A stretch of 64,000 bases of DNA from a virus, in UHGV virus genome UHGV-0064883; one strand, given 5' to 3'. A program made the translations under genes and the position numbers. The notes below the pieces were generated by a model. That model did no database searches and had not been told where the DNA came from. It saw only the letters and a list, made by a program, of their open reading frames with translations. Below, piece after piece: positions 1 through 64,000 of this stretch. The stretch's first letter is position 1; every line of letters begins with the position of its first letter.

Positions 1-2
1 CA

Positions 3-572
3 TTGCCTTATTGCACGCTCAGCGAAGTGCAGGCGGAAATTCGTAACTACGATGCCAACATCAACGATAAGCTGATTTCAGCCATTGAGCGGGCTACGGC
101 ATACATCGACGAGTACTGCCGGAAAACCTATCAGCCTGTTGACCGGGTGTCGGTCCCTTTCCGCGTGCCGTCCCCCTGTGTTGCCGGAAAATCCATACTG
201 CTTCCGTTCCCGGTCCGGGAACTGTTGAGCATTGAGGACGGGGACCAGCACGGAGAAGCCCTCACCCCGCAAACGGTCGAATGGTACTCCGGTTCCACCC
301 GCATTATTGCCCCAAGAAACCTTGTCAACCCGGTCAACATCTATGGCACGTTCGGCGGGGAATCCTCCAACAACGCGCAGGAGCCTCCCTTGGATTTGCC
401 CGCCGGAATACGGCGTGCCGCCGTGTTGATTGCCGCCGCCTTTTCCGGAGAGTACAACCGCGAGCGCATTGACATCAATGGCGAGCGGCAAAACGTCCTC
501 GAAACCTGGATTCCTAAAGAGGCCAAGGAGCTTCTGAACCGCTACGCCAGGACCCCCGCATCATATATTTGA
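3..572 (+). CDS. Head-tail connector/adaptor protein (phage gp6-like); 5' end at or just outside window
   Basis: 189-aa ORF at the window edge, first codon TTG. N-terminal pattern L-x-E-V-x-A-x-I-R...D-x-L-I-x-A-I-x-x-A-x-x-Y-I-D-x-Y matches gp6-like connector proteins. Lies immediately before other head-tail joining genes. Confidence 0.5.
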   Translation: MPYCTLSEVQAEIRNYDANINDKLISAIERATAYIDEYCRKTYQPVDRVSVPFRVPSPCVAGKSILLPFPVRELLSIEDGDQHGEALTPQTVEWYSGSTRIIAPRNLVNPVNIYGTFGGESSNNAQEPPLDLPAGIRRAAVLIAAAFSGEYNRERIDINGERQNVLETWIPKEAKELLNRYARTPASYI

Positions 573-577
573 CGTTC

Positions 578-1204
578 ATGGGCTGGATGCGCTGTAGATA
601 TGCTTCGGGCAATTTCAGCCGGGCGCTTTCCCGCATGGAAAAAGCCCTGTCGCCCCAGCGGCTGGACAAGGAGGTTGCCAAGAAGTGCGCGGATATTGTC
701 AAGGCAAGGCTGGTGCGTCGCACCCCGAAACGCTGGACGGGCCAGCTTCGCCGCAACTGGCGCACGGTGCAGTGGTCCACCGGAATATGGGTGGTGGAAA
801 ACCCGTCCCCGGTTATGTCGTATCTGGAACATGGCACCAGGCCGCATGGCGCTCGCGGATTCCGGCACACCAGCACCGGGAAGCGCGTCAGAAAAAAATT
901 GTTCATACCCCTGAACCGTCAAACCGCTATGGCCTATTCAGCCCAGGGCGGCACATTGGAATCAAAGCGCGAACTGTTCCGGAACGGTCGATTTATCACG
1001 ACAACCAGAAGAAACCGCCGGGGAATCAGACAACAGCGCACCACGCAAAAGAAACTCATATACGGAAAAGACTATATACTGGCAAAACGGGTGAAGGGCA
1101 TCCGGGCAAAGCATATTGTGGAAGGCATGCGGCCATTTGCCCGGAAGCTTCTCCGGATTGAAATGCGCCGGTATCTCCGGAAGGCGGTTTTGGGCCGCAT
1201 GTAA
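578..1204 (+). CDS. HK97 gp10-like head-tail joining / tail completion protein
   Basis: First ATG of the ORF (the track start at 569 is TTG). Motif NPSPVMSYLEHGTRPHG resembles the conserved core of the HK97 gp10 family. Sits directly after the connector gene. Confidence 0.45.
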   Translation: MGWMRCRYASGNFSRALSRMEKALSPQRLDKEVAKKCADIVKARLVRRTPKRWTGQLRRNWRTVQWSTGIWVVENPSPVMSYLEHGTRPHGARGFRHTSTGKRVRKKLFIPLNRQTAMAYSAQGGTLESKRELFRNGRFITTTRRNRRGIRQQRTTQKKLIYGKDYILAKRVKGIRAKHIVEGMRPFARKLLRIEMRRYLRKAVLGRM

Positions 1205-1255
1205 ACCCGTCTTTTTTTTGTTTTGCCACGAACCGTTGCAGGCTATTTTAACCTT

Positions 1256-1855
1256 ATGAGCACTCAACCCATTGATACGTCAAAACTGCCTATGGCCCTG
1301 GCGCCGCTTTACGTTTTGCTGAACCGTCTGACCGGGCACACGGATAAGGGGCGCATGCTTTACGGCCTGCGCCTGGAACTCTTCCCGGCAATGGCCAGGG
1401 TGCAGGGAAGAAAAGATTACCCGGTGCTTCGGATGCTGGTTCCAGCCCTTGGTTGCAGGCCCTCCGACGCGGGTTCCGGGTACCGGGCGGCAAAAAACCG
1501 GGACACGGAAGAATCTTCCTGCCTTACCCCGATGGACAGCCTGCTCACCGTGACATTCCAGTTGGAGACCTCCGCTGATTCCGGCTGGTTCGGCCCGGAA
1601 GTCCCCAGGGGCCGCGACCGTTGCGCGCTGGGGCATCTCGACTGGCAATGCTTGATTATGGACGCAATGGAGACGGACTGGACCCGTGGAGACAATTTCA
1701 TCGACATGCGTCTTTGCAAGACATTGCAATCACCGTTTTCCATTGAGCTGACCGACGACCCAAGCCCCAACGAATCCAGTATTGCGTCATTGATTGTCGT
1801 CAACATGTCCCAGTCGTTCCTTCCGCGCGGTTCCCGGTATAGTACGCTTGTATAG
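1256..1855 (+). CDS. Hypothetical protein in the neck/tail module
   Basis: ORF 1223-1855, trimmed to the first ATG (MSTQPID...). No recognisable motifs; assigned by position only. Confidence 0.35.
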   Translation: MSTQPIDTSKLPMALAPLYVLLNRLTGHTDKGRMLYGLRLELFPAMARVQGRKDYPVLRMLVPALGCRPSDAGSGYRAAKNRDTEESSCLTPMDSLLTVTFQLETSADSGWFGPEVPRGRDRCALGHLDWQCLIMDAMETDWTRGDNFIDMRLCKTLQSPFSIELTDDPSPNESSIASLIVVNMSQSFLPRGSRYSTLV

Positions 1856-1930
1856 CTTTATTTTTATTGACCCGCTATACAGCACCTAGCAAACTCTCAC
1901 ACAAACGGAGGAACCTTTTTTCACATTGCT

Positions 1931-2302
1931 ATGGCCGAAAGCAAATACAAACAATTTGGAGACGAGCTTACTTGGGGCGTACCCAAAGACGAAATGAGCT
2001 TGGTAACGCAGACTGTTACGTTTACGCAAAAATCCGACAAAAAGGAAGTGCGGGACCATGAAGGGGAAATCCGCACTGTTACTTATTACAACCAATCCGC
2101 GGATGTCACCATCGAAGGCTATGGCGACGCTTCCGCAAGCGTTGCTACCCGCATGACGATGCAAAACACGTTCCAGTCCGCCATGTCCGGGGCCTTGCTT
2201 ATTGACCAGTGCCAGGTGTCCCTGTCAAATGAGGACCACATCAAGTCATCCATCACGGCAGTGCTCTATCCGAACATTGCCGCATCGGGTTCAGAATTGT
2301 AA
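1931..2302 (+). CDS. Putative major tail (tube) protein
   Basis: 123-aa ORF preceded by GGAGGAA and sitting between the head-tail joining genes and the chaperone/tape measure genes. Function inferred from gene order only. Confidence 0.35.
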   Translation: MAESKYKQFGDELTWGVPKDEMSLVTQTVTFTQKSDKKEVRDHEGEIRTVTYYNQSADVTIEGYGDASASVATRMTMQNTFQSAMSGALLIDQCQVSLSNEDHIKSSITAVLYPNIAASGSEL

Positions 2303-2370
2303 GCGAATTTTCACGCTTTGAAAATTGACGCGCCCTTGCTGTTTTTTTACAGTAAGGGCGCATTGCCGTT

Positions 2371-2939: not shown

Positions 2940-3515
2940 ATGGCCGCACAATCATCATCTGATATTGCTTCACTTGCCGCGCAGCTGGCGGCAGCCCCGC
3001 TTCCGGGAGACGGAGGAAAAGCCTCCGCCATTTCCGAACCTTCCCGCATGCTTCCGCAGGAAAAATATGACCATGACCTGTCGGAATTGTTTCTCACGGA
3101 GGGCACGACGGATATCGCCGGATATAAAGTCGCTTCTCCTACCCTGGCTTCATTTATGCTGCTGGAATTGCTCGGAAACAGTTTCGTCATGGTTGAAAAT
3201 CTTGGCCAGATTCCGGCAAACCTGTTCACGTTCACTACCGTTCAGGCATTGGCCGTCCTGCGTTTCAAGGACACCTACAAACTGGTGAAAATGATTGCCG
3301 AAGACCGGGACGCTTTTGACCGTCTGGTGCTGCGCATGGCCGAAGAGCTTCCGGCATCAACCCCCGTACTGGACATAGCCGTTGCTATCGTTGAATTGAT
3401 GAACAACGGAAAACGGTCGAGCGCCAAGGAATCCCCCAACCCGAAAAAGCGTCAGGCCCCGGCAAAAGGAAAAAAAGCGTCAAGCCGCCGTGGTGGTTTA
3501 TCACAGCCAGCATAG
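2940..3515 (+). CDS. Putative tail assembly chaperone (by position, directly upstream of tape measure)
   Basis: First ATG of ORF 2880-3515. Acidic N-terminus and a basic Lys-rich C-terminus. The gene immediately before a tape measure gene is usually a chaperone. Confidence 0.35.
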   Translation: MAAQSSSDIASLAAQLAAAPLPGDGGKASAISEPSRMLPQEKYDHDLSELFLTEGTTDIAGYKVASPTLASFMLLELLGNSFVMVENLGQIPANLFTFTTVQALAVLRFKDTYKLVKMIAEDRDAFDRLVLRMAEELPASTPVLDIAVAIVELMNNGKRSSAKESPNPKKRQAPAKGKKASSRRGGLSQPA

Positions 3516-6937: not shown

Positions 6938-7738
6938 ATGGCTATTTCACACAACGGACCGCGGGAACCCATTGAACAGCCCGGAACGATGACCGTCGAA
7001 CGAGTGTCGGAAGACGGCGTAGTCCGGTTTGAAAAATCAGCAACCAGAGTGTTTGAGGTTCCGAAGGATATGGCGGCGGCCTTCATGCTGACCCCCCCGG
7101 CAACCCCCATGCCGGGAACAATCTTTTTGGAATCAAGGTGTGAAGAAGAAAATGCGGAGTGGTCCAAGGTGACATTCACCTACGGCGAAGACCCGGACGA
7201 TTCATCCGGAAGCGGCGGAGACGATTCCGTGCGCCGAACGGTCAACGTCACTACCTCTTTAGTAGATATCCCTATCCAATGTTCGCCAAAGTACATTGAC
7301 ATTTCCGGGGATTCCCCAAAATCGAAAATTCCTGATGACGATTTAAAACTTCTAGCCTATGCCATGTCCGGGCAGTTCAAAGACCCCCGGAACAACACCT
7401 ATATTAAGGACAGCCTTACGTCGGACATGGCTCGTGAGATTTTCGACTACCTGACGCTCGGAATCACCCACTTTGCCTATCCGCAGACCGTGATACGCAT
7501 CTCTTACCCAAAGTCCAAAGTAGGTTCCGGCCAGCAATTCGGCGTTCCCACTAAAACACCCGGAAAAAAGGGAGATGCCATTCCAGTAAAACTTCCGGAA
7601 GACAGCAAAATTGATTTCACATTGATTTCCCGGTCTATCAACTACGACGGGAAATACCACACGACAGACGAGGAATACCAGTCATCGTCCCCGTTGGGCT
7701 GGAAAAATGACCGGAAATTCTGGGGGGAAGGAGAATAA
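6938..7738 (+). CDS. Putative distal tail protein (by position after tape measure)
   Basis: First ATG of ORF 6884-7738; the track start lies inside the palindrome. No family motif recognised. Confidence 0.35.
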   Translation: MAISHNGPREPIEQPGTMTVERVSEDGVVRFEKSATRVFEVPKDMAAAFMLTPPATPMPGTIFLESRCEEENAEWSKVTFTYGEDPDDSSGSGGDDSVRRTVNVTTSLVDIPIQCSPKYIDISGDSPKSKIPDDDLKLLAYAMSGQFKDPRNNTYIKDSLTSDMAREIFDYLTLGITHFAYPQTVIRISYPKSKVGSGQQFGVPTKTPGKKGDAIPVKLPEDSKIDFTLISRSINYDGKYHTTDEEYQSSSPLGWKNDRKFWGEGE

Positions 7739-7752
7739 ACCTGTAAAATATT

Positions 7753-10233
7753 ATGGCATTACGGCGAGTACGAAGAGGGGAACCCCTGCGTATTGGACAG
7801 ATTAACCAGTACGCCGAACTTCTTGGGCAGATGGCCGGGGGCGGAAAACTTTTCCGGGCTAACAGGACCGGCTACCAGATGGACCGGGACCTGAACCCCC
7901 TGTTCCCGTTTGAGTTGATGGCCCTGGATGCCCAGTCAAGCACCGGGGAAGCTACAAAAGGCGTGCCGCTGGCGAAATCCAAGGATTTAATTGCGTTTCT
8001 CCACCCCGGTTCCGTCACGTTTATCGGACTGGACGGCGCAGCCTCACAGGTGTTCCCGGTCATCAAAGACCCGAAATACGCCCCTACGGATTCCCCCGGC
8101 GGAGGAAACGAGGATGGAGCCGCCGTCAATACCTGGCCCCGCCCCGGTATTCAAATTGAGCTTGATACGGTATATGGCATTCATCTGTTCGCTAAATTGG
8201 AGCGAGTGACGATGCAGATAGGCCGTGACCGGATAATTCAGGTGTCGGTCAAGAAATGGTGTCGTGACCGCACCCCGTTCATCGGCACGGAGGACGAAAT
8301 GGACAGCTCCGCTTCGGACGATGAAGATATTATCCGGACGTTCATTCCATTGTTCCGGCCCATTGAAGACAGCGCAATCGAAGGAAATGTTTATGTGGAA
8401 AACCTGCATGAAAGCGATTTAATTCTTCCGGACATTCCGCTTGAAGGCGGGTCATCATCTTCCTCAGCGTCCTCTTCATCCAGCAGCTCCAGTAGTTCGA
8501 GCGGCGGAGTATCATTCAGCAGTTCAAGCAGCTCATCATCATCAAAATCAGAGGGTTCGGAATCCGCATCTTTTTCCTCGTCTTCGTCGTCGGCAGGCCC
8601 CTACATTGACCCTACATTGATTTCCGTGCCGGCGCGGGAACCCAATTCGGAATTCGGCGGCATCTACCGCACCCTGAAAGGCTTTAATTTTCCGCCCAGC
8701 GATGACAAGCCGGGCATGGCCTACATCATCATTTTCAGCCCTGTCGAATCTTGCGATTGGGTAAACTTTTCCACAGCCGGATTGGTGGTAACCAAGACGG
8801 ACAAACAATGGGAAGGCTATGTTGCCATTGACGACAACGGGAACTGGGATTGCAACGTCATCATTGACGAATTCACCGACCCGGAACATACCGGTGTCCA
8901 CCGCTACAAAGATTTCAAAGTCGGCTACCGGGCTAAAAAGCAGAACATAGCCGTAGATATTCTCATTGTTGACCAGGCGCCCCCGGAAGCGTCCTCTTCC
9001 TCGTCTTCGTCGTCTGTGAGTTCATCTTCGGAAGAAAAGTATTATTTCCGGTTTGTCCCTAATAAAATTACGGTGGACAGCCAATTTCAGAAAGTACAGG
9101 GCTATATCCGCACCGACTCCCCCTACGGGTGGAAAATCCCGGAGGACTTTCCGGCGCAGTTCCCTTCCGGGAAATGGGTATCTATTTCCCCGCTGACCGG
9201 GAAAGACCACGATAATTTTGAGGTTACGTTCCAGAAAAACGAGGAAGGGACCACCCGCGACAATCTGGTAACAGGGTACGCATTGACCTCGCACGGCACA
9301 TTGATGCTGGAAGCAACCGACACCCTGAATGTCACCCAGACCCCGGAAGCCTCTTTATCCAGCAGTTCCAGTAGTTCGAGCAGTTCCTCTTCATCTTCCT
9401 CGTCTTCCTCATCTTCCTCTTCCGGCTCGTCAAGCTCGTCCCAGGCGGACTGGTTTGAAGTGTTCCCCACTTCTATGGCTTTTAGCGCGGACGGCAAGCC
9501 AAAAGATTCTAACAAGGTAAGGCTTCGCGGAACGGTCGGATGGCGGGCTGATACGCAAAAAGACTGGTGTTCCATGTCCCCGTCATCAGGCCCAGCGCCA
9601 GGGGACGCGGGAACGGAAGCCGTGATAACCTGCCAGCCGAACAAGGAGGTAAACGGAAGAAGCACACTGGTTGAAATTAGCGTCACCCTGAATGGGTCCC
9701 CGCAATATTACTACGTCAATGTTATCCAGGAAGGCAATCCTCCTGTTCCTTCGTCGGAAAGCGAATCTTCCTCATCCTCGGAAGCCTCTTCGGGGGCCAG
9801 TTCGGCTTCATCAAGCAAAACCGCCATTTTGCCGGTGCGCGGAAAGTTCCTCGGCATGATGTGCATGGAGTCCCCGGAAACCTGGTTTATCGACTTTGCC
9901 ACTATCCACCTCCCGCTTGGGCTGATGTTGGTTGACCAGACGTTCATTGATGTTACCGAGCCGGGTTCCATAGCGGTTGTGTCCGCCATAGATGACCGGG
10001 GCCGCCCCGCAAGAGCATGGCTGCGGCTGGAAGGCGGGGAAAAGAAATATCTGACCCTGTATGCCCGTCCGCAGGGGTTGGGCCGGATATTCAGGCCGGA
10101 CCGCATTACCGTCCAACTGATAGGGAGGCGCCTCGGACACCGGAGCAGGTTCCCGGAATTTTCAGAAGCGCAGTTCCGGGCGAACGAAGCGTTCTACGCC
10201 CAGGCGCACAGGGAGAAAACCCCGAAAGATTAA
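7753..10233 (+). CDS. Tail-associated adhesin-like protein with poly-Ser linkers and two BACON/Ig-like domains
   Basis: 826 aa with five poly-Ser tracts encoded by (TCN)n DNA repeats at about 8449-8530, 8570-8595, 8985-9025, 9355-9440 and 9750-9815. Two segments (aa 430-520 and 575-660) have a BACON-like pattern (GW/W-x-S-x-SP...G...V...TL-V). Lies in the position of a tail tip or receptor-binding protein. Confidence 0.55.
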   Translation: MALRRVRRGEPLRIGQINQYAELLGQMAGGGKLFRANRTGYQMDRDLNPLFPFELMALDAQSSTGEATKGVPLAKSKDLIAFLHPGSVTFIGLDGAASQVFPVIKDPKYAPTDSPGGGNEDGAAVNTWPRPGIQIELDTVYGIHLFAKLERVTMQIGRDRIIQVSVKKWCRDRTPFIGTEDEMDSSASDDEDIIRTFIPLFRPIEDSAIEGNVYVENLHESDLILPDIPLEGGSSSSSASSSSSSSSSSSGGVSFSSSSSSSSSKSEGSESASFSSSSSSAGPYIDPTLISVPAREPNSEFGGIYRTLKGFNFPPSDDKPGMAYIIIFSPVESCDWVNFSTAGLVVTKTDKQWEGYVAIDDNGNWDCNVIIDEFTDPEHTGVHRYKDFKVGYRAKKQNIAVDILIVDQAPPEASSSSSSSSVSSSSEEKYYFRFVPNKITVDSQFQKVQGYIRTDSPYGWKIPEDFPAQFPSGKWVSISPLTGKDHDNFEVTFQKNEEGTTRDNLVTGYALTSHGTLMLEATDTLNVTQTPEASLSSSSSSSSSSSSSSSSSSSSSSGSSSSSQADWFEVFPTSMAFSADGKPKDSNKVRLRGTVGWRADTQKDWCSMSPSSGPAPGDAGTEAVITCQPNKEVNGRSTLVEISVTLNGSPQYYYVNVIQEGNPPVPSSESESSSSSEASSGASSASSSKTAILPVRGKFLGMMCMESPETWFIDFATIHLPLGLMLVDQTFIDVTEPGSIAVVSAIDDRGRPARAWLRLEGGEKKYLTLYARPQGLGRIFRPDRITVQLIGRRLGHRSRFPEFSEAQFRANEAFYAQAHREKTPKD

Positions 10234-13535: not shown

Positions 13536-13551
13536 CGGGAAAATATTCTCA

Positions 13552-13570
13552 ATTTGCAATCATTGCAAAC
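13552..13570. repeat. 19-bp palindrome ATTTGCAATCATTGCAAAC (copy 3)
   Basis: Immediately after the spanin-like gene, at the start of the AT-rich noncoding region. Confidence 0.85.
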
Positions 13571-27893: not shown

Positions 27894-27913
27894 CTTTGGT
27901 TGGGCAAAAGGGC

Positions 27914-33780: not shown

Positions 33781-33792
33781 GGTGGGGGGGGT

Positions 33793-34152: not shown

Positions 34153-34153
34153 C

Positions 34154-35110: not shown

Positions 35111-35134
35111 ACATCAAAGATAGATAGACGATTT

Positions 35135-38029: not shown

Positions 38030-38156
38030 TTCCCGGCCCGTTGAGGGCAGTCTGGTAAAACCGGGCTTTTACTCTGTGCTGGAAAAATTGCCGCTGGTGG
38101 AATACATAGGCCCCTCCGAACGGTTTTTCCTGTGGTTGGAATTTGCTTTTTCCGCC

Positions 38157-51723: not shown

Positions 51724-52041
51724 CAAGCTATCCCGGATTTGGCAGGATGCTCCCCGCATGCGCGACGCGCTTCAAAGGCGTGGATTGAGGCGATAAGGGC
51801 ATGCTTCCGCAGGGTGTATGCGTGGGGGGCAAAAGAAGGCTTCCCTTGGAGGGTATAGTGAAGACTCTCCCCTTCTCCTGCGGCAAACGGGAACAACAAA
51901 AAAGGGGATGCCCTTCCTTTTTTCCAGGATGGCCGCAGTTTTCCGCTGCGGGGAAAGAAGGAAGGGTATTTTTCCGCCTCCAATTTTTCTTTTTACTCTT
52001 TGTGCCTGATGCAGATTCCTCCCCCCCCCGATAAATGCCGA

Positions 52042-53396: not shown

Positions 53397-53419
53397 AACC
53401 ATGCTAAGAATCCATGAGA

Positions 53420-53438
53420 ATTTGCAATCATTGCAAAT
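53420..53438. repeat. 19-bp palindrome ATTTGCAATCATTGCAAAT (copy 15)
   Basis: Ends 20 nt before the ATG of the second ParB-like gene. Confidence 0.9.
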
Positions 53439-53458
53439 TTCAAAAATCGTTTTCGCAC

Positions 53459-54295: not shown

Positions 54296-54341
54296 CACAG
54301 GCCGCTTTGATTTTTTTACCGCAATAACTTTTCTTTTTTTT

Positions 54342-55205
54342 ATGCTGACGCATTCCGATTTTTGCACGTTTATTTTGTCTCATGGACGGCCAAACAATAT
54401 CAGAACCCTGCACCCGTTGCTAAACACCGGAAATTACAGCGGCCCCTGGTACATCATTATCGACAATGAGGACCCCACGGCGGAAACCTACTATCAGCTT
54501 TACGGCTCCGACCGGGTAATCATGTTTGACAAGGAGGCCGAAGCCCGTCGCCTGGATATTGCAGATAATTTCGTCCACATGAGCCGCAAGACCATTACCT
54601 ATGCCCGCAATGCCTGTTATGACATTGCCAAAAACTTGGGCTACACGTATTTTTGGCAGCTGGATGACGATTATTGCCGGTTTCGGTACGTGACCGACCA
54701 GGCCGGAAAATACGTGTACCACAGCATCCGCCACCTGGACGAAGCGTTGAACGCGACCCTTGATTATTATAAAAGCGTTCCTTCCCTGACCCTGTTGTCC
54801 TGGATGCAGGGCGGGGATTTACTGGGCGGCGCCAACAGCCAGTCTCTGACCGTGGTGAAGCGAAAAGCCATGAACAGCTTTATTTGCTCTACCGAGCGCC
54901 CCATAAAGTTCCGGGGCCGGATGAATGAGGACGTAAACACCTATGTTTCCGAGGGCAACCGGGGAAAGCTCATTATGATGGCGAATTGTGCCGGCATTTT
55001 ACAGACCCCCACCCAGATTAACGACGGAGGAATCACGGAACTTTACAGGTCTTGCGGCACTTACACCAAGGCAATGTACACTGTGATGCACATGCCCTCA
55101 GTAACTACAGTGGGCATGATGCACAGCACTTTTCCCCGGATTCACCACACAATAAATTGGAACAACTGCGTTCCGAAAATTATCCGGCAGGAGCTTAAAA
55201 AATAG
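54342..55205 (+). CDS. GT-A-like putative nucleotide-sugar transferase 2 (paralog of 50276-51211)
   Basis: MLTHSDFCTFILSHGRP...WYIIIDNED...YFWQLDDDYCRF; about 55-60% identical to copy 1. Confidence 0.35.
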   Translation: MLTHSDFCTFILSHGRPNNIRTLHPLLNTGNYSGPWYIIIDNEDPTAETYYQLYGSDRVIMFDKEAEARRLDIADNFVHMSRKTITYARNACYDIAKNLGYTYFWQLDDDYCRFRYVTDQAGKYVYHSIRHLDEALNATLDYYKSVPSLTLLSWMQGGDLLGGANSQSLTVVKRKAMNSFICSTERPIKFRGRMNEDVNTYVSEGNRGKLIMMANCAGILQTPTQINDGGITELYRSCGTYTKAMYTVMHMPSVTTVGMMHSTFPRIHHTINWNNCVPKIIRQELKK

Positions 55206-55293
55206 AGCTTTTCCGGGAAGAAAGACCCTTCATCTATCGGCCCTGTCTGGATATTAGCCCGGCAGGGCCGCAGTATATCTTTCTCTTTTTCTC

Positions 55294-55431
55294 AATTTGC
55301 AATCATTGCAAATTTTTTTTCTCAAAAAAGATTCTTTTTCTCTTGCAATTTATAAAAAATAATGCTAAATTACATTCATCAAAGGGAGGGAATAACTCTC
55401 CTACAGCAAAAAGCCTGAAAGTTAAAACATA
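55294..55431 (+). promoter_or_regulatory. Palindrome (copy 16) plus conserved promoter/leader cassette
   Basis: ATTTGCAATCATTGCAAAT, then TTGCAA-17nt-TAAATT, then CATTCATCAAAGGGAGGGAATAACTCTCCT (stem GGAG/CTCC). Confidence 0.55.
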
Positions 55432-55683
55432 ATGAAGACTGCAACCATCATTTACCGCTGGACCGCCAAAACCTCTTCCAGATGTCTTGGCCGCTATTAT
55501 ACCGCCAGCACCCTGCTTGAAGCCATTAAGGCGGGAAAAGAATTTGTGACCCGTGAGTTCCACGGGACGGGTTCCGTACTTATTGAAGCTTCCCTGGACG
55601 GAGGAAAAACCTGGCACGTTAATCGCGAATACAGACGCGACCGTTATACCCAGATGCGCTGGACAGCGGAAGTTTTCTATTGA
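55432..55683 (+). CDS. Small protein, paralog family A (with 44430-44690)
   Basis: YRWTA...TLLEAIKAGKEFVTREF...ASLDGGKTWHV. Confidence 0.45.
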   Translation: MKTATIIYRWTAKTSSRCLGRYYTASTLLEAIKAGKEFVTREFHGTGSVLIEASLDGGKTWHVNREYRRDRYTQMRWTAEVFY

Positions 55684-55769
55684 TACCCCCTTCCCCGGCT
55701 GGAAATTATATTTGGCCGGGGAATAAACCTGATTTCATTATTATTTACTTAAATCATAAAGAAAAAACC

Positions 55770-56060
55770 ATGAACAGAAACGTAACTAAAACCGTAACCC
55801 ATCATATTCTTCCCTGTCTGGGCCTTCTGATTGTTGAAGCCGTCTCCTGCGTGCTTGCCGTCTATGGCATTGTTATCCTGCTTGGATATGACGCGCCTTC
55901 CCTTTATTGTGTGTTATCCGGGATTCTGAAAGCTATCGCGCTGGTAATATTGCTTCTCATCAGCGTGGGAAGCCTGGTGGGTATTGTGGGTGTGGCAGTG
56001 CATCTTTTTTCCTCAAATTGCCGTTGCCAGGAAGAAGACAGTGATGAAATTAACCGATAA
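55770..56060 (+). CDS. Small membrane protein
   Basis: Two or three TM helices (ILPCLGLLIVEAVSCVLAVYGIVILLG; AIALVILLLISVGSLVGIVGVAV). Confidence 0.4.
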   Translation: MNRNVTKTVTHHILPCLGLLIVEAVSCVLAVYGIVILLGYDAPSLYCVLSGILKAIALVILLLISVGSLVGIVGVAVHLFSSNCRCQEEDSDEINR

Positions 56061-56075
56061 TCCTCCAGACAAAAA

Positions 56076-56636
56076 ATGAAATTGACGCTTGAACAAAAAG
56101 CTTTTTATGAATATGGCCGGGCTGTGGAATCCCTCAAGAGGACAATTTACGAAACCCGCGAAACTGCTATTCAGGAATTCAAAGACCCATACCGCTTTCT
56201 TTCGACATATGACCGGAAACAGCTGATTGACGCAATGGGTCTTGCCTCGGAGATTTCTGCTGTCCGGCAGAAGCGTGCCGCGTGCAGGGCGTGGAAGTTG
56301 CTAGCACAAAGACATTGCCAGAATTGTTGTTATTACGGAAAATCCGGTAATGATGCGCCCTGCGTCGATTGTACCTTGGGAGACATTGGTGATGATACTC
56401 GTCTTAGCTGTAATTGGGCGCCAAGGCGCAAGTTCAGAAAAGGTGATATTGTACGTCGGATTGATACCGGAAAAATGCGGGCGTATGATGACCATATTCC
56501 ATTCGGAAAACTTGTAACCATACTGAAAGACGAGACTGATGACGACTGCGGAAATATCTTAGTAGGAACTAGAGAAACTACGCAGGCCGTAAAATTCTAT
56601 GAAGTGAAACTTTTTTTAAAAAAAGCTAACGATTGA
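56076..56636 (+). CDS. Cys-cluster protein, paralog family B (with 45901-46258)
   Basis: MKLTLEQKAFYEYGRAV... and a CQNCCYYG...CVDC cluster. Confidence 0.4.
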   Translation: MKLTLEQKAFYEYGRAVESLKRTIYETRETAIQEFKDPYRFLSTYDRKQLIDAMGLASEISAVRQKRAACRAWKLLAQRHCQNCCYYGKSGNDAPCVDCTLGDIGDDTRLSCNWAPRRKFRKGDIVRRIDTGKMRAYDDHIPFGKLVTILKDETDDDCGNILVGTRETTQAVKFYEVKLFLKKAND

Positions 56637-56837
56637 TTGAACATGAAAAAAGAAAAACTTAAATGTTTTATATGCGGGCAAGCAGTAGAATTAGTTGGTG
56701 ACTCTGCTCAAATAGAACGTATGGGTTATGACAGGCACAATGACCGTCCGTTTTTTAATGTCTGCCGTGAATGTCAACAACTTATCGACAAATGCCTTAT
56801 AGAATTTGAGCAGAAATTTCCAGATGAAGACGCTTAA
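56637..56837 (+). CDS. Small zinc-ribbon protein
   Basis: CFICGQ...CREC, 66 aa. Confidence 0.35.
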   Translation: MNMKKEKLKCFICGQAVELVGDSAQIERMGYDRHNDRPFFNVCRECQQLIDKCLIEFEQKFPDEDA

Positions 56838-57168
56838 ATGTCCACTGTGCGGGAGTTTGTTGAAACTGGATTTCAGTTGCAAATATATCTGCCCCAATTG
56901 CGAACTAGCTGCAAAAAGCGGAATCTCAAAAGAAGAGGCACTAAAACGTGCGGAAAAACTTATTTCTCAATTCCCACCTATCATGCGGGTATTTCCAGGA
57001 GATAAGTTAAAGTTTTTTAACCACCAAATGCGCCAGAAAATTGCATACATAGAAAAAGTTAATTTGAAGTCTGGCTGGATAAAAACAAATAAAGGATTTG
57101 CCCGCCCGGATGATGTGATTCTGTGGCCTTGGGAACTTGAACAAAAAGAAGAAGGAGATAAACAATGA
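56824..57168 (+). CDS. Zinc-ribbon protein, paralog family C (copy 2)
   Basis: MKTLKCPLCG...CPNC, then ISQFPPIMRVFPGDK, then WPWELEQ. Confidence 0.45.
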   Translation: MKTLKCPLCGSLLKLDFSCKYICPNCELAAKSGISKEEALKRAEKLISQFPPIMRVFPGDKLKFFNHQMRQKIAYIEKVNLKSGWIKTNKGFARPDDVILWPWELEQKEEGDKQ

Positions 57169-57506
57169 AAACACCTAGATGTCCGCTGTGCGGAGAAGAA
57201 TTAACGCCGTCTGTACAAAAATACGGATTTGAATACGTCTGCTGGAAGTGCAAATGGCAAACCGCTTCACTTTGCTCCACCAGGCAAGAAGCGGAAAAAA
57301 CAGCTCAAAAGCTAATCTCCAAGTTCCCTCCCATCATGAGGGTTCATCCTGGCGATAAGCTTCATGACAAGTGGTGCGGGCTGGTCACGGTTGAATCCGT
57401 CGATAAGGAAGACTGTGTAATCACAGTACGAACTGTCAAGGGGAATGTATCCCGTACTTATTGCGAGGATGTTAATGAATGGCCCTGGGAAATCGAACAA
57501 GAATAA
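57165..57506 (+). CDS. Zinc-ribbon protein, paralog family C (copy 3)
   Basis: MKTPRCPLCG...CWKC, then ISKFPPIMRVHPGDK, then WPWEIEQ. ATGA overlap with copy 2. Confidence 0.45.
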   Translation: MKTPRCPLCGEELTPSVQKYGFEYVCWKCKWQTASLCSTRQEAEKTAQKLISKFPPIMRVHPGDKLHDKWCGLVTVESVDKEDCVITVRTVKGNVSRTYCEDVNEWPWEIEQE

Positions 57507-57509
57507 ATT

Positions 57510-57803
57510 ATGGACATAAATGAATTGTTAGAAGATAAGGATAACGGGCTTGTTCCGTTAGACGGGCGCAGTTATGATATAGCTGCATACGCTGGACAAC
57601 TACGGCAGGCCCGGAATCTTTTACTGGGTTCCCTGCCCGCTGAAACAGTGGCTTGCATGTCGGATAATGAAGTACTCCAAACTTTGGTTGACTGCAAGAA
57701 TCTCGTTCCAGTCGCCGCCTCCTATAAAGACGGCATAGACGATGAAGTCATCTTTCTGGTTCCGGCGGAAATATTGAAGAGGTGCAGGGTTCTGCAACGC
57801 TGA
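57510..57803 (+). CDS. Hypothetical protein
   Basis: 97-aa ORF. Confidence 0.35.
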   Translation: MDINELLEDKDNGLVPLDGRSYDIAAYAGQLRQARNLLLGSLPAETVACMSDNEVLQTLVDCKNLVPVAASYKDGIDDEVIFLVPAEILKRCRVLQR

Positions 57804-57862
57804 ATGATTTTCCGGCAAACCACGCTATGAACGGAAAAACATGAGAAAAAAGGAATCATGCA

Positions 57863-58270
57863 ATGACCGATATTCTTCTATCTATCAAAAAGCCGTTCTC
57901 CGACCTCATTTTGTCGGAGGAAAAGAAATGGGAGCTGCGGAAAACCGAACCCCGCGCCATGAAAGACGGCCCCATAATGCTCTGGCTTTATGAATCCGGG
58001 AAGGATGGGGCGCATGCCATTATTGGAAAATGCCAGACAAAGTATGCGCTGCCCATGCTCCAACAACTGAACAACTGGCAACGCCTGTGGATGATGCGGG
58101 AAGCCTGCATCACGAAAGAATACCTGTCTTCCTACATCCCCTGCCGCGCCTGGAACCTCACCAGCCCCGTGCGGCTTCCCTACGCCGTACCGCTCTCTGA
58201 AATCGGCCTGGTCCGCCCTCCGCAGTCCTGGCAATACCTCACCGAAGAACAAGCAGCACTTTTACGATGA
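57863..58270 (+). CDS. ASCH-domain (PUA-like) protein
   Basis: N-terminal ILLSIKKPFSDLILSEEKKWELRK matches the ASCH start pattern (ILLSIKP-x-Y-x-x-I-x-x-G-x-K-x-x-E-x-R). Confidence 0.45.
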   Translation: MTDILLSIKKPFSDLILSEEKKWELRKTEPRAMKDGPIMLWLYESGKDGAHAIIGKCQTKYALPMLQQLNNWQRLWMMREACITKEYLSSYIPCRAWNLTSPVRLPYAVPLSEIGLVRPPQSWQYLTEEQAALLR

Positions 58271-58420
58271 AAAACCCTATAAAATTTCTACAGCACATGA
58301 TTACCGGCATACAGACTGCCACCCCCCCCCACCTCTACTACCGCCGCCGAAGAAACCCCGGAAAGGCAGACGTACAGGAATCTCCGGCAGGCATGGAGAT
58401 ATTACTACCGCACTCACAAG

Positions 58421-58633
58421 GTGGATTTGGCCATTCTTTACCAGTTAACCGGCCTGCGTGACCGGCTGGACCCGGACAAAGACCCGGAACAGTACGCCCA
58501 TGCGGTGAAGGCGGTGGAAGCCATCAATGGTGTCCTGGCTCAAAACCGGATTATCCAGACACGCATTTCCGCCCTGATGACCGACTGCCGGAAAAAGTAC
58601 GAGAAAAACAGAACGCCCCATCATGAGCAGTAA
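58421..58633 (+). CDS. Hypothetical protein; possibly the C-terminal part of a gene split at a C9 tract
   Basis: 70-aa ORF. The upstream ORF 58267-58461 carries a C9 tract (58322-58330). Deleting one C would fuse the two frames. Confidence 0.3.
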   Translation: MDLAILYQLTGLRDRLDPDKDPEQYAHAVKAVEAINGVLAQNRIIQTRISALMTDCRKKYEKNRTPHHEQ

Positions 58634-59423
58634 TTTTGAAATACCGCCCCAGGAACTTTATGTTGACTGGCCGGAACAGCCCTGGCCCCGCCTGTCAGGG
58701 CAGCTTGACCGGAAGCAGCTCCGCCGCGAATTGCTGGACGTGCTGAAACATCTTTCAAACAAGGCGAAACTCCGTATTGGGCCGTCCGGGACCACCAGCA
58801 AGAAAGTACATTATGCCTGCGAATCCAGATATACCCGTCTGATAGCCTCTGACTGTGTGGCGCTGGCCGTCATTACCCGGAAACGGCTGGAAGCTGACAA
58901 GCCGGCAGGCTATTGCGGGCATATTGCACCCAAATCGGGAAGAATCTACCCCGACAAGCCGAACTACTTCACGCAGTTCTGGAAACGGTCGATGCCCGGC
59001 AGCCCGGAATGCACCATTGCCATCAACTACGATACGTGCATTGCCAGCCTCGAACGGTTTGCCTTTTTCGCCAATATGGCTGATTCCAGCCAAAACTGCT
59101 GCGCGGAAAATTACTATTTTGGCGTAACAAACCGCCGTGGAAACTTTATTGCCGTCCATCCGTGCTATATCGGCAATTTTCTCCGGCTGGTGGAAATCCT
59201 GCACCGCCATCTTGGCGGCCGATTGAAAATGACCCTGCGCGTTCCCGCCGCACAGAGCGGCCCTCTGCGTTTTTCCTTCCTGGCGGGCAAGAATGCGGGC
59301 GATTGCTATATTCTGGACTACGCCGTAATGCCGTTCTGGCATAAGCATCCCCTCAAAGGCTTCCGCCGCGTGGCGCTGAACTGCTTCCAGATAGGCAATT
59401 GGGCGGGGAAGAACAAGCCCTGA
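58623..59423 (+). CDS. Hypothetical protein
   Basis: 266-aa ORF. Confidence 0.45.
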   Translation: MSSNFEIPPQELYVDWPEQPWPRLSGQLDRKQLRRELLDVLKHLSNKAKLRIGPSGTTSKKVHYACESRYTRLIASDCVALAVITRKRLEADKPAGYCGHIAPKSGRIYPDKPNYFTQFWKRSMPGSPECTIAINYDTCIASLERFAFFANMADSSQNCCAENYYFGVTNRRGNFIAVHPCYIGNFLRLVEILHRHLGGRLKMTLRVPAAQSGPLRFSFLAGKNAGDCYILDYAVMPFWHKHPLKGFRRVALNCFQIGNWAGKNKP

Positions 59424-59535: not shown

Positions 59536-61941
59536 ATGATTCAAGCCGCCCATTTTGACATCAAGACCGTTACCGGACTCCGGCAGGCGCTGGTACTGTC
59601 CGCAGAGTATGAAAATGAGCCTTTCCCTCTTGAGGGCTACACCCTCCACGGCAGTATCGGGACGTACCCAAGAATGGATTTGAAATGTTCCGTGGACGAA
59701 AACGGTCGCGCCCGGATTGAATGGGATTCCGTGCCTCCGGGGAACTGGAAATATGATGTGTTTCTCATCAGTGCCAGCAACGATGAAACCCCCCTCATGG
59801 AAGGGACTTTCACCGCCCTTCCAAGAATCACCCCCGTTCTGGACGATGAATCCGTCAATGATGAAGTCGGCGGGGTTCTGCACCTGCCTTCCGGGAACGA
59901 GGGAACTATCACCTTGGAGGTTGACGGCGGATTCGTCTCAAAAGAATATGCGGCCATTGCCAAGGATGCGGCGGAGAAGGCCCAACAGGCTCTGGAAGAC
60001 ATCAAGCAGGCATTGCAGGGCGTAGTCACGTCGATTGGCGGGGCATCCGGAGACATCCTTCTGGATTCCGGTCTGAAAATCACCGGCGACCGGGAAAAAG
60101 GCAATGTTTCCCTGTCCCTGGACGACAAAACGGTCGTATTGACCGCGGGCAGCCAGACGATTGACGGCGTGAAAACCTTTTCATCCCCTCCCGTCATTGC
60201 GTCCGCCCCCGCTTCCAACAATGAGGCGGCAAACAAGAAGTATGTCGATGACATGGCGAGCAAGGCCACCGGCACTACCATTAACGGCGTTTCCGGGAAC
60301 ATCACGCTGGACCTTCCCATGCAGCTGGACCCTGGTACCAAGTCCATGTCTGTAGATTTGAGCGGCTACGCCTCTTTGCAGACGGATAACGTTTTTGAGG
60401 GCGGCAATACGTTTATGGCCGGAATCAAGGGCCATGTCGACAGCGTAACCGGCACTGATATCCTGTACGCAACCAACGTCCCCGGCGACAGCAGCAGCGG
60501 GCATCCGGTATTGACCATTGAGCATGTCGGTTCCAGCAACGTGAGGATTTCCTCCGGAACGCATTTGCTGTTGAAAGCCAGGGGCGGCAATATTTATGCG
60601 GAATCCATCTTCACCGCGAACGGGGGCGTCAATGTTTACGGCTCCGCCCTGTTCAATTCCGGCGTAACCGCCAGCCAGTCGCTCACCGTGGGCGGCCATG
60701 CCCAGTTCAATGATACTGTGCGCGTGGAAACCGGGAAAATCGACCCCGGCAATTTCGGCCATACCTGGACATTCGGCTCACTGATTGATTCCCCCACGAC
60801 TGACGACAACAACAATCACCGGCTATGCTGCAAATCCACTTCCGACAACGGGGCCTACATCATCTACCATGAGCGGGTGATCAACGGCGCATGGATGAAA
60901 GATAAGATTATTCCCGCCTGCCAGTTCGATTTTTCCTGGCACAACGACGCCTCCCTTGTCGTCAAGGACCCCACTAAGGCGGAACAGGCCGCCAACAAAA
61001 ATTATGTGGATTCGCAGTTTAATTGCCTGTCCCTGTCCTACATGACTCTGGACACCCCGCAAACGGTCAAAGCCGAAAAAACCTTTACCGGCAACGTCAA
61101 TATCAACACCAACGGAAACAACGGCACGCTGACCCTGAAAACCAGCGGGGGCGTGGGGTATCTGGTAATGGACACCGGAGAATTCTCCATTTCTGTCGAT
61201 TATCTCACTCTGGGGGGCCAAACTTTCGTTCAAACGCTGAATGTGGCGGAATCCTCCCTGTTCACCGGGTCCGTAACCGTGAGCCAATACCTGAAAACAA
61301 GCTCGCTGGACGCTGAAAACGTGGAAGCGAGTACGATAAATCTGGTGGATAGTTATGACCTGTCCTGCATTGACCTGATGCCGTTTTACGACTCTCCAGA
61401 TACAGCAAGCCTAATCTTCCATCCCGCCCAGACCGGCCCCGGCACAACGGATTACGATATACAGCTTTATTTCACCTACGGTTCCAGCGGCGGCTTCGCG
61501 GACTGGCTGGCCGGACCATCTATACAGATGATGCGGTTCCATCCGGCAATCGGGTTTTACAATGCGGTATCTTACAGCAATCCGGTAGTGTTTCTCGGTT
61601 CAGCTACATTCAGCGCCCTGTTGAAAGCGCAGCAGGCTGAAATAGACCAGCTGAAAATCAACAGCCCGTTGTATGAGGAGGGGTTTTTAGCCTGGCAGGA
61701 TGCCGGGGGCCTCTCCATGACCCGCCCCAGCATTACGGAATCCCTATACGATGCCGACAACCCCAAAGCCATGTTGAACCGGGAAGACAACGACCAGCGC
61801 TATTTGCAGGTAAAATCCCTTACGGCGGCGGAATACGCAGCCCTCGGTTCCTACAGTCTGACAACCCTGTACCGGATTACGGATGCAGACCCCGCCGCGG
61901 TATATCTGGGGGACCTGAAATTATCCGTGGCCGCCGACTGA
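59536..61941 (+). CDS. Tail fiber protein
   Basis: 801 aa. Repeated A-x-NK-x-YVD motifs (EAANKKYVDDMA, AANKNYVDSQF) are typical of phage tail-fiber repeats. Gly/Ser/Thr/Asn-rich beta-type composition. Confidence 0.7.
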   Translation: MIQAAHFDIKTVTGLRQALVLSAEYENEPFPLEGYTLHGSIGTYPRMDLKCSVDENGRARIEWDSVPPGNWKYDVFLISASNDETPLMEGTFTALPRITPVLDDESVNDEVGGVLHLPSGNEGTITLEVDGGFVSKEYAAIAKDAAEKAQQALEDIKQALQGVVTSIGGASGDILLDSGLKITGDREKGNVSLSLDDKTVVLTAGSQTIDGVKTFSSPPVIASAPASNNEAANKKYVDDMASKATGTTINGVSGNITLDLPMQLDPGTKSMSVDLSGYASLQTDNVFEGGNTFMAGIKGHVDSVTGTDILYATNVPGDSSSGHPVLTIEHVGSSNVRISSGTHLLLKARGGNIYAESIFTANGGVNVYGSALFNSGVTASQSLTVGGHAQFNDTVRVETGKIDPGNFGHTWTFGSLIDSPTTDDNNNHRLCCKSTSDNGAYIIYHERVINGAWMKDKIIPACQFDFSWHNDASLVVKDPTKAEQAANKNYVDSQFNCLSLSYMTLDTPQTVKAEKTFTGNVNINTNGNNGTLTLKTSGGVGYLVMDTGEFSISVDYLTLGGQTFVQTLNVAESSLFTGSVTVSQYLKTSSLDAENVEASTINLVDSYDLSCIDLMPFYDSPDTASLIFHPAQTGPGTTDYDIQLYFTYGSSGGFADWLAGPSIQMMRFHPAIGFYNAVSYSNPVVFLGSATFSALLKAQQAEIDQLKINSPLYEEGFLAWQDAGGLSMTRPSITESLYDADNPKAMLNREDNDQRYLQVKSLTAAEYAALGSYSLTTLYRITDADPAAVYLGDLKLSVAAD

Positions 61942-62547: not shown

Positions 62548-62846
62548 CCCGTACCCCCCCCGCATACAATACCGCATAGCCTACACCTCGACATGATATA
62601 TGCTTTCGGCGCAGGACAACGAAAGCCTCCGGTGGAGGCTGATTCAGATGAATGTAATCGTCGTCTGGTTTTACCTCCTGCGGCTCCGGGATTCCGGAAT
62701 CTGGAACAAACACCTGCAGCAGAAGCTGGACGACACGGAACTCGTCTTTTTAATCATCAAATGGTACATGTGGTACATGCCCGTTCTGTTCCCCGCCTGA
62801 TTGCGGGTGGCGAGATGAGATAAAATGATGGGCCGCGCGGAAAAAA

Positions 62847-62882
62847 CGTGTAAAACGTGTAAAACATGTAAAATATGTGCAG
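62847..62882. repeat. Tandem 9-bp repeat (C/T)(G/A)TGTAAAA x3-4 (iteron-like)
   Basis: CGTGTAAAA CGTGTAAAA CATGTAAAA TATGTGCAG, in a 440-bp noncoding stretch that also holds C8 and C9 tracts. Confidence 0.5.
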
Positions 62883-62986
62883 TGCATGTATGCAGGGGGG
62901 ACATATCGCGCGCAGGCGCGGATGCGTAAAGGCATGCGGCCCTACCCCCCCCTATGAAAGTAAATAAATAAAGAAAAAAATCGGAA

Positions 62987-63742
62987 ATGCACGCCTATTT
63001 GCTCTACACACCGGGGGAAATGCTGGAAGGCGAAGACGAACTTACCGCACTGGGCTACCATGTCCATCCTTTTTTGGGCAATAATGATACGTCCGGCCTC
63101 CGGAACAAAGTCAAACACATTCCCAGCCTGGGGCATTCCGCGTCCTATTTATCAGACGGACTGGGCTACAACTGGTGCGGCCACGTCCATGCGCTCCGCG
63201 CCAACTTTGCAACCATGCTGGAAACTTACATGGATGCGGACGACCTTACTATATATGGAGAGTCGGACTGCGTGCCCGCGCCTTATCCCCCTGTGTCCGC
63301 CGACGATATTTCCTGTGTTTGTCAAGAAGCGGTTTCCCGGCATCCTGAAATCGGCATCATCCGTCTGTACCGCCGCGCCACACTATTTAACGAGCCTACC
63401 TGGTGGAACCATGCGCCCCTTGAGATTGTCCCGCTGAAAAAGGCGGCCAGAATCTCCAACATTCCTTTTACGAAATATTACTGTCAAACCCACGCCCTGA
63501 TTATCCGCAGGCACGTCCGCCAAACGGTCATCGACGCCATGCGGGATTATTATTTGCCCATTGACGTGCTCCTATCTTATTTGTCCCAGATTGGGACCGT
63601 GCCCGTGTGGCACACCAGCATCAACCTAATGCTTCAACGCCCCCACAGCACGGGAAAGAGGCTGGCGGACTGGCAGCGCAAACATTCTGTTCCGGCAGCG
63701 GACTATTGGCGCGACAGGCCCGGACTGACTGGAAAAAGGTAG
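62987..63742 (+). CDS. Hypothetical protein
   Basis: 251 aa. A C9 tract lies 35 nt upstream of the ATG. Confidence 0.4.
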   Translation: MHAYLLYTPGEMLEGEDELTALGYHVHPFLGNNDTSGLRNKVKHIPSLGHSASYLSDGLGYNWCGHVHALRANFATMLETYMDADDLTIYGESDCVPAPYPPVSADDISCVCQEAVSRHPEIGIIRLYRRATLFNEPTWWNHAPLEIVPLKKAARISNIPFTKYYCQTHALIIRRHVRQTVIDAMRDYYLPIDVLLSYLSQIGTVPVWHTSINLMLQRPHSTGKRLADWQRKHSVPAADYWRDRPGLTGKR

Positions 63743-63750
63743 GTGCACAA

Positions 63751-63769
63751 ATTTGCAATCATTGCAAAT
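63751..63769. repeat. 19-bp palindrome ATTTGCAATCATTGCAAAT (copy 18)
   Basis: Last copy. Downstream the gene strand switches to minus. Confidence 0.9.
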
Positions 63770-63788
63770 TTTCCTTTTCCCCTCTTTT

Positions 63789-63986
63789 TTACTCTTCCCG
63801 CCTGTCCCGATTGCCGGAATCCCCCAGTAGTGAGTTCCGCGCCTGCTGGGTTTTCAAAAATTCTTTCCAGTAGTGCTCATACGGCCTGTTCGGCTGCGAC
63901 CGGATAATTTCTCTGCAAATCCGCGCATTTTTCAGCAGGCTTTCCATGCCGGAAATCATTGCGGTGTCTGGATGCTCTTCTGTCAT
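63789..63986 (-). CDS. Hypothetical protein (minus strand)
   Basis: 65-aa ORF (MTEEHPDTAMISGMESLLKN...). The only ORF of any length at the window end. Confidence 0.3.
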   Translation of the reverse strand: MTEEHPDTAMISGMESLLKNARICREIIRSQPNRPYEHYWKEFLKTQQARNSLLGDSGNRDRREE

Positions 63987-64000
63987 ATCTGCGGGAGATT

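Follow-up and report, generated by a model that had tools for sequence, protein, structure and literature searches.

The window examined here, 64,000 nt of the ~88 kb genome of a tailed phage (UHGV virus genome UHGV-0064883), carries the heptamer AACGGTC in large excess on one strand. An exact search locates 46 copies, with 39 on the + strand and seven on the − strand. The word is very probably a cis-acting one-strand DNA signal, placed and kept by selection, and read as a linear word by a sequence-specific factor. We tentatively propose that an enzyme encoded by the phage recognises the sites and nicks the DNA there in a strand-specific manner.

The excess is apparent under every null model applied. 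Dinucleotide-preserving shuffles (n=100) yield 7.2±2.5 copies for both strands summed, with a maximum of 13, and a second-order Markov model predicts 4.2 copies on the + strand and 6.4 on the −. When protein sequences and codon usage are fixed and only synonymous codons are permuted, 5.2 (+) and 5.1 (−) copies are expected, placing the observed + strand count at z=15.8 and AACGGTC as the top over-represented 7-mer of the window; no second strand-asymmetric word comes near it in strength in the same scan. As the − strand count sits at expectation, the skew is a gain on the + strand rather than a loss on the −, and a strand bias in the style of Type III restriction is ruled out. An earlier inspection of the letters alone (the sequence-only reading) had reported 35-38 + strand copies against about 4 by composition, and about five of the reverse complement, GACCGTT. 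The exact figures are 39, against 4-5 expected per strand under the nulls, and seven, and as both the enrichment over the second-order Markov model and the strand imbalance hold, that observation stands. Each of the 38 positions it listed corresponds to a real site, but many coordinates were 1-12 nt off (7243 is 7237, 9521 is 9531, 19971 is 19963, 22018 is 22028 and 53334 is 53343) and the site at 272 had been overlooked. The + strand sites, followed by two decayed ones, are as follows.

272-278, + strand, site in open reading frame (ORF) 3-572, context cAACGGTCg
983-989, + strand, site, context ttccggAACGGTCga
3412-3418, + strand, site
7237-7243, + strand, site
9531-9537, + strand, site in the BACON-domain tail gene
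10918-10924, + strand, site
13061-13067, + strand, site, lost in strain L003 (AATGGTC)
14574-14580, + strand, site
19225-19231, + strand, site in the replication-O-like gene
19963-19969, + strand, site in the replication-O-like gene
22028-22034, + strand, site in the PolA gene
22763-22769, + strand, site in the PolA gene
23321-23327, + strand, site in the PolA gene
23754-23760, + strand, site in the PolA gene
26614-26620, + strand, site in the RNase H gene
26814-26820, + strand, site in the RNase H gene
28249-28255, + strand, site in the primase gene
30483-30489, + strand, site in the SF2 helicase gene
30598-30604, + strand, site in the SF2 helicase gene
32007-32013, + strand, site
32573-32579, + strand, site in the RecA-like gene
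34291-34297, + strand, site in the Cas4-like exonuclease gene
35909-35915, + strand, site in the RuvC-like gene
38346-38352, + strand, site in the N6 methyltransferase (MTase) gene, retained in the sister lineage
39120-39126, + strand, site, lost: absent from L059 and the sister lineage
40692-40698, + strand, site, retained in the sister lineage
42237-42243, + strand, site
43384-43390, + strand, site, retained in the sister lineage
46493-46499, + strand, site, AACGATC in three strains
47285-47291, + strand, site, retained in the sister lineage
49235-49241, + strand, site, retained in the sister lineage
52584-52590, + strand, site, polymorphic (AACAGTC or GACGGTC in some strains)
52742-52748, + strand, site, lost in the sister lineage
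53343-53349, + strand, site, retained in the sister lineage
58984-58990, + strand, site
59701-59707, + strand, site in a tail-fibre-like gene
60129-60135, + strand, site in a tail-fibre-like gene
61062-61068, + strand, site in a tail-fibre-like gene
63523-63529, + strand, site
38603-38609, + strand, decayed site, AACAGTC in the window and AACGGTC in five other strains
53846-53852, + strand, decayed site, AACAGTC in the window and AACGGTC in 10 other strain loci

The bases around these sites extend the word. Position −1 is A or G in 38 of the 39, bearing out the (G/A) context noticed earlier, and position +7 is G or A in 36; position +8 is A-rich, and there is a weaker C-richness at −5 to −3, such that the fuller form can be written c-c-c-s-R-AACGGTC-R-a. 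The flanked form RAACGGTCR occurs 35 times on the + strand and once on the −. The core is strict, with none of its 21 single-substitution variants being enriched on the + strand. Beyond the window, density and orientation are the same as within it: for an 83.6 kb contig, 75 kb of it covered, the counts are 47 vs 7, and 43 vs 1 with the flanks included.

All 39 sites are located inside coding sequence, none being intergenic, and they are distributed over the three frames as 19/11/9, giving NGR, (E/K)RS and xTV(E/K), as the sequence-only reading had proposed. Each of the 11 phase-0 sites uses GGT, the rarest Gly codon, which makes up 9% of Gly codons elsewhere. A peptide, codon or repeat artefact is ruled out by the use of three frames, by the unrelated flanks and by an excess that holds under the codon-shuffle null.

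Comparison with 15 strain loci, 92-99.6% identical to the window, demonstrates that the sites are under purifying selection. Bases of the motif mismatch in 0.70% of cases (9/1281), 4.7× fewer than the 3.27% found elsewhere, whilst 7-nt control sites of like codon phase and neighbourhood mismatch in 3.6±1.3%, and not one of 2000 resamplings is as low as the motif. The footprint of low divergence extends from about −3 to +9 relative to the word, and turnover of sites among strains is low, proceeding via single transitions. In a sister lineage (TerL 95% and DNA 81.6% identical), six of nine aligned sites are retained vs 24% under neutrality; synonymous positions beside the retained sites have diverged, and two more sites occur in lineage-specific DNA. 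The longest motif-free stretch of the window, 53400-58980 (5.6 kb), is its lowest-GC region, a strain-variable accessory segment with the second of two ParB/TAGT pairs described below and small ORFs, and it fits recently acquired DNA that has still to accumulate the word.

Near-cognates of the word are scarce on its own strand. With the codons of motif sites frozen, 300 codon shuffles predict 69.2±7.6 one-off variants on the + strand, where only 36 are observed (z −4.4; lowest shuffle 47), whilst the − strand shows no depletion (82 vs 89.8 expected). The same holds for GGTC outside the motif, with 105 copies on the + strand vs 158 expected (z −5.1) and 304 vs 282 on the −. The sites themselves are evenly spread, at 4,4,6,5,6,5,4,5 per 8-kb bin, or 0.61 per kb (~1 per 1.6 kb), and the coefficient of variation (CV) of their spacing is 0.74, vs 0.96±0.14 for random placement (P≈0.04). 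They have no fixed placement relative to promoters, terminators or gene ends. No hairpin, single-stranded DNA structure or accessibility signature was seen at the sites, and the lack of a hairpin context suggests that the word is read as a linear sequence. The word points the same way everywhere in the window and in the genome beyond it, even though the sign of the GC skew switches near 13 kb and 57 kb, rendering a KOPS-type polarity signal unlikely. The earlier interpretation of AACGGTC thus survives as far as a selected, strand-biased, cis-acting DNA signal that is no codon artefact; its specific appeal to Chi or KOPS goes unsupported, and for KOPS the orientation switch at an origin or terminus is not observed. 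Nick consensus words, which are strand-specific and the nearest empirical precedent, did not figure in that interpretation.

Genes of the window, and likewise of the rest of the genome, lie almost entirely on the + strand. Those identified include a tape-measure protein, a BACON-domain protein, an AAA ATPase, DnaB, PolA, an SF2 helicase, a RecA-like protein and TerL, as well as a replication-O-like protein, RNase H, a DnaG/TOPRIM-type primase, a Cas4-like exonuclease and a RuvC-like resolvase; no tRNAs were found, and neither a repressor nor an integrase was seen in the annotated parts of the genome. Megablast against deposited phages gave no DNA-level match to the window, and a protein search with the BACON segment gave no match. 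An identical TerL protein occurs in 513 collection blocks, on contigs of 81-89 kb from many human-gut metagenomes, and the phage is present in hundreds of these. Phages of the 'Flandersviridae' have colinear genomes of about 85 kb with a BACON-domain structural protein, DnaB, DnaG and PolA, are abundant in the human gut, and have been linked to Bacteroides and Parabacteroides hosts through CRISPR spacers (PMC8008677); on gene content, size and gut abundance, the present phage is a probable member. Genes that could bear on the reading of the word are listed here.

27779-28933, + strand, DnaG/TOPRIM-type DNA primase, candidate reader if the word directs priming
30121-35928, + strand, recombination set of SF2 helicase (30121-31572), RecA-like protein, Cas4-like exonuclease (34133-35110) and RuvC-like resolvase, candidate readers of a phage-private Chi
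37977-38783, N6_Mtase-domain protein
40504-41358, + strand, match to a PHROG 'endonuclease' family (E 1e-7) with neither a Pfam nor a PDB relative, candidate reader only
49287-51211 and 53414-55205, just after TerL, two paralogous pairs of ParB_N and TAGT (TET/JBP-associated glycosyltransferase) genes

With regard to other phages, relatives at 27-45% TerL identity are without AACGGTC, and amongst ~27 independent loci of at least 14 kb, strongly one-stranded dispersed words are confined to the window and a subset of its closest relatives. Most of the seemingly skewed words of distant relatives were dismissed as gene junctions (TAA-C-ATG), AC-rich leaders or tandem repeats. The clearest counterpart is a word of its own, CGCCCTT(G), in locus L149 (TerL 45% identical, GC 63%), which occurs 16 times vs 3, at 0.75 per kb, evenly spaced with a CV of 0.52 and in two frames. 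Directly upstream of TerL, at 7353-9308, L149 also harbours QueD/QueE/FolE-type 7-deazaguanine genes, the counterpart of the ParB/TAGT island of the window.

Amongst bacteria, a scan of 185,579 species genomes (one each) for two copies 100-130 bp apart gives at least 120 matches and reveals no clade with dispersed enrichment among the matches listed, which amount to an estimated ~3% of the expected chance matches and are moderate evidence at best. They are taxonomically scattered single pairs, all stretches with at least five copies being local tandem repeats, and no human-gut Bacteroides, Phocaeicola or Parabacteroides is among them. Two Bacteroides plasmids and two other Bacteroides phages are not enriched for AACGGTC either, as the following counts (+/−) indicate, and a search of the accessible literature returned no report of the word, nor of its being a known methylation or recognition motif.

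crAss001, 0/0, 50 kb covered
B40-8, 3/1
B. thetaiotaomicron p5482, 3/3, expected 2.3/2.8
B. fragilis pBF9343, 0/0

Among the possible mechanisms nicking is tentatively ranked first, as no other experimentally documented class matches the full signature. A phage-encoded enzyme would recognise AACGGTC on the gene-sense strand and leave localised single-strand interruptions there, in the DNA of virions or in late intracellular DNA, a pattern that would resemble those of phage T5 and the phiKMV and tf/LUZ24 groups. In phage tf, the nicks of which have been mapped experimentally, the word TACTRTGMC occurs 14 times vs 0; its left arm carries 0.48 sites per kb with a spacing CV of 0.63, and 7-mer sub-words are present at 12-13 vs 0, with ~3 expected. 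The tf word also keeps to one DNA strand even where genes flip. In phage Rembedalsseter, nicks have been shown as ends of native long reads and drops in per-strand coverage (PMC11780129). That the matches listed and the four Bacteroides replicons give no evidence for a host-chromosome origin, together with the different word of L149, fits a reader encoded by the phage.

A number of points weigh against nicking. The genome has ~50 sites, compared with 4-14 major nicks in described nicked phages, and the word is genome-wide, whereas sites of the tf group concentrate in one half of the genome (PMC11780129). No nickase gene was identified in the phage, the PHROG 'endonuclease' match at 40504-41358 being a candidate only; nickases do not constitute defined families in the model phages either. 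Chi of Escherichia coli is equally one-stranded in T7 (7/0) and HK97 (4/0), at 0.10-0.18 per kb, and strand exclusivity therefore cannot separate nick words from Chi-like ones; more broadly, enrichment, strand exclusivity with frame independence, and selection do not discriminate between the two. The host-chromosome comparison is underpowered, covering ~3% of chance matches, and leaves room for Chi. Relatives suggest a clade trait with lineage-specific words, but the support is thin, with an ambiguous one-stranded word in L011, L009 and L305 and no comparable word in L007, L013 and L306. The nicks, finally, and the encoding of their enzyme by the phage are inferred.

Unlikely, though the best placed of the rivals, is a Chi-like role, whereby the word would attenuate a helicase-nuclease arriving from a free DNA end, protect linear or rolling-circle DNA and promote RecA loading. 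The reader would be the AddAB enzyme of the host, which Bacteroides uses, or a phage set of SF2 helicase, Cas4-like nuclease and RecA-like protein. AddAB-type Chi sequences are typically 5-7 nt long, which a 7-mer matches, and the orientation dependence fits. Protection would benefit from an even spread and from conservation at the level of individual sites; a helicase, a Cas4-like exonuclease, a RecA-like protein and a RuvC-like resolvase are among the phage gene products, and the word differs in a relative from a different environment, as a species-specific Chi would lead one to expect. The one-strandedness of E. coli Chi in T7 and HK97, along with the fact that the AddAB Chi of B. fragilis was not known as of 2010 (PMC2887965), keeps Chi a live rival. 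Against this, no bacterial clade with dispersed enrichment appears among the matches listed, crAss001, B40-8, p5482 and pBF9343 are not enriched, the depletion of near-cognates on the + strand is not predicted, and the density is 3-6× that of E. coli Chi in phages. Furthermore, if replication is co-directional with transcription, the orientation protective for rolling circles would be on the opposite strand. The T7 genome used for this comparison (L308) has its Chi octamers at 7178, 19646, 22538, 23729, 29087, 31735 and 34033, all on the gene-sense strand.

Rather improbable is a code for priming, in which the DnaG-type primase of the phage would preferentially start Okazaki fragments at the word on the lagging-strand template; the gene-sense strand would be that template under rolling-circle replication, or where replication and transcription run in the same direction. 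The even ~1.6 kb spacing is compatible with the scale of Okazaki fragments, the word lies on the strand expected to be the lagging-strand template, and abortive priming could be kept down by the scarcity of GGTC and near-cognates there. The phage has a primase gene, and the word ends in GTC, the core of the T7 gp4 primase sites 5'-GGGTC, TGGTC and GTGTC. However, the T7 words occur on the + and − strands at 39/55, 79/62 and 43/42, respectively, with no strand-exclusive excess (a test of the precedent rather than of the primase in this phage), whilst the primase of the window is of the bacterial DnaG/TOPRIM type, enzymes known to read trinucleotides rather than 7-9 nt. Both observations weaken the idea. 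The loss of one of ~50 sites should moreover cost little, yet individual sites are conserved. In a more specific and just as improbable form, a primase (or primase-helicase) would have evolved a 7-9-nt specificity, with fixed Okazaki starts every ~1.6 kb on the strand that always serves as lagging-strand template, and with partial matches (GGTC and one-off variants) purged from it so that priming does not abort; alternatively, the word would be a phage-private Chi, used by the phage helicase and Cas4-like nuclease to tell phage from host DNA.

The sequence-only reading had also raised DNA modification. The MTase and ParB/TAGT genes it named are real, but nothing ties them to AACGGTC, and we again regard the odds as low that the word is the target of N6-adenine methylation by the protein at 37977-38783, or of ParB- and TAGT-directed hydroxymethyl-pyrimidine glycosylation, acting as an epigenetic-like mark rather than as bulk anti-restriction. 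In its favour are the N6_Mtase protein and the two ParB_N and TAGT pairs beside TerL, which are arranged as published for the surroundings of phage 5-methylpyrimidine dioxygenase genes. ParB-dependent phage thymine dioxygenases act post-replication with a sequence preference, some perhaps needing longer contexts (PMC13229309). Known preferences, however, cover 2-3 nt, and no TET/JBP-type dioxygenase was detected; a 266-aa ORF (52000-52800) considered as the missing enzyme is an ORFan with an AlphaFold model of pLDDT 28 and may resemble a cytidylyltransferase. The two pairs share stretches of 71-79% identical DNA, and the second is missing from some strains that keep the motif. A hypervariable specificity subunit beside the MTase is ruled out, as the adjacent ORF is 96-99% identical among strains, its length differences being gene-calling artefacts. 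A modification target need not, in any case, be over-represented, one-stranded or evenly spaced, and in L149 a comparable word is accompanied by a 7-deazaguanine module instead.

Restriction sites are strongly avoided in the window. GATC occurs six times vs 246 expected, GGGCCC 0 vs 39, CCCGGG 0 vs 38, TTCGAA 0 vs 25, GGATCC 0 vs 22 and CCATGG 1 vs 25. This extreme avoidance of GATC and several 6-bp palindromes suggests that the DNA is not globally shielded by hypermodification, which would leave room for a site-restricted mark. GATC is likewise avoided in B. fragilis pBF9343 (eight in 36 kb), as opposed to B. thetaiotaomicron p5482 (236 in 33 kb), and the pattern may be a clue to the restriction systems of the host. 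CCGG (755 vs 417) and TCCGGA (63 vs 21) are over-represented symmetrically on both strands, and TTCCGG/CCGGAA show a similarly symmetric excess under the codon-shuffle null (114 and 151 vs 47 and 64).

A role in RNA or transcription, with AACGGUC acting in every mRNA, or as a non-template-strand element for RNA polymerase or an accessory factor, is very improbable: every one of the 39 sites falls within transcribed coding sequence and the motif strand is the sense strand genome-wide, but there is no structural context, accessibility difference or fixed position with respect to promoters, terminators or gene ends, the tf word keeps to one DNA strand despite gene flips, and we know of no RNA system that uses such a word.

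Were the nicks real, this would be, to our knowledge, the first nicked-genome phage of the Bacteroidota, and the most densely nicked, offering ~50 natural sites at which to study a phenomenon unexplained for 50 years. Were the word instead Chi-like, the Bacteroides AddAB Chi, not known in 2010 (PMC2887965), would gain a concrete candidate. Under either reading AACGGTC is a simple diagnostic marker for this lineage, and the phage is among those most frequently assembled in human-gut metagenomes.

The window contains other repeated elements. A palindrome, ATTTGCAAT-S-ATTGCAAAT, often followed by a T-run, is present in 19 intergenic copies, and an exact-pattern scan of IMG/VR locates it almost exclusively in this phage species; it is probably an operator or terminator delimiting transcription units. 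Its copies are found at the positions below.

2894-2925, 6909, 10701, 13550, 15522, 18496, 24822, 26931, 32123 and 35953, palindrome copies
36806, 41356, 43092, 44286, 49060, 53418, 55293, 59425 and 63749, remaining palindrome copies

Some 40 nt downstream of the palindrome there is often a promoter-like module, TCTTGCAATTT … TAAATTGC, which we take to be compatible with the Bacteroidota −33/−7 type, together with a small GGGAGGGAA…CCC hairpin. Eight C-runs of 7-9 nt lie on the + strand, at 2611, 7092, 49348, 52021, 52575, 58322, 62554 and 62945, alongside only one G-run, and the poly-C excess is one-stranded in strain loci too (CCCCCCC 13 vs 0 in L005). These could be slippage-prone tracts, the run at 52021 being located where gene-start calls vary among strains. 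The largest non-coding stretch, 13536-14243, has three 45-nt direct repeats (13641, 13702 and 13968), is near the cumulative GC-skew minimum, and may be an origin or regulatory region. At 62987-63742, a 251-aa gene occurs as a tandem duplicate in some strains (L061 8332-10756; L062/L063), with a small antisense ORF after each copy, and the module stands at either end of one 92 kb contig, as it would in an assembly that is circular or terminally redundant. Just past the window end, at L061 13301-17155, are Sulfotransfer_2-like, PAPS_reduct/CysD-like and GTP_EFTU/CysN-like proteins and an APS kinase, comprising a sulfotransferase and a set for PAPS synthesis, and sulfation may be aimed at DNA-linked sugars or at host glycans; for the CysD-like protein, the genome collection holds no close bacterial relative. 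GroES is also encoded.

Several known systems share features with the AACGGTC sites. Stoperators of cluster A mycobacteriophages are asymmetric 13-bp repressor sites, co-oriented with transcription and present in dozens of copies; AACGGTC is comparable in copy number, asymmetry and orientation, but stoperators are located mainly in short intergenic gaps and serve the repressor of a temperate phage, whereas 0/39 of the sites here are intergenic. The T7 gp4 primase sites share a 3' GTC/GGTC core with AACGGTC, and both would lie on the presumed lagging-strand template; unlike those words, AACGGTC is strand-exclusive and strongly enriched, and the primase here is of the bacterial DnaG type. Chi is likewise short, orientation-dependent and one-stranded in phages, whilst AACGGTC differs in its 3-6× higher density, in the avoidance of near-cognates on its own strand, and in that no host chromosome with the word is among the matches listed. 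The nick words of the tf/LUZ24 group (TACTRTGMC), the phiKMV group (CGACN5CCTACTCCGG) and T5 (R/GCGCRGG) are short and asymmetric and, like AACGGTC, one-stranded. They differ in length, at 9-19 nt against 7-9 nt, and the phage and its host phylum are unrelated to theirs. In the tf group the word is found within coding sequences, at conserved positions, and is common to 61 phages (PMC11780129), and the tf study itself explains the scarcity of near-matches by nickase and sites having co-evolved (PMC3517423). AACGGTC resembles it in being intragenic, positionally conserved and accompanied by few near-matches, with a density and evenness similar to those of the tf left arm.

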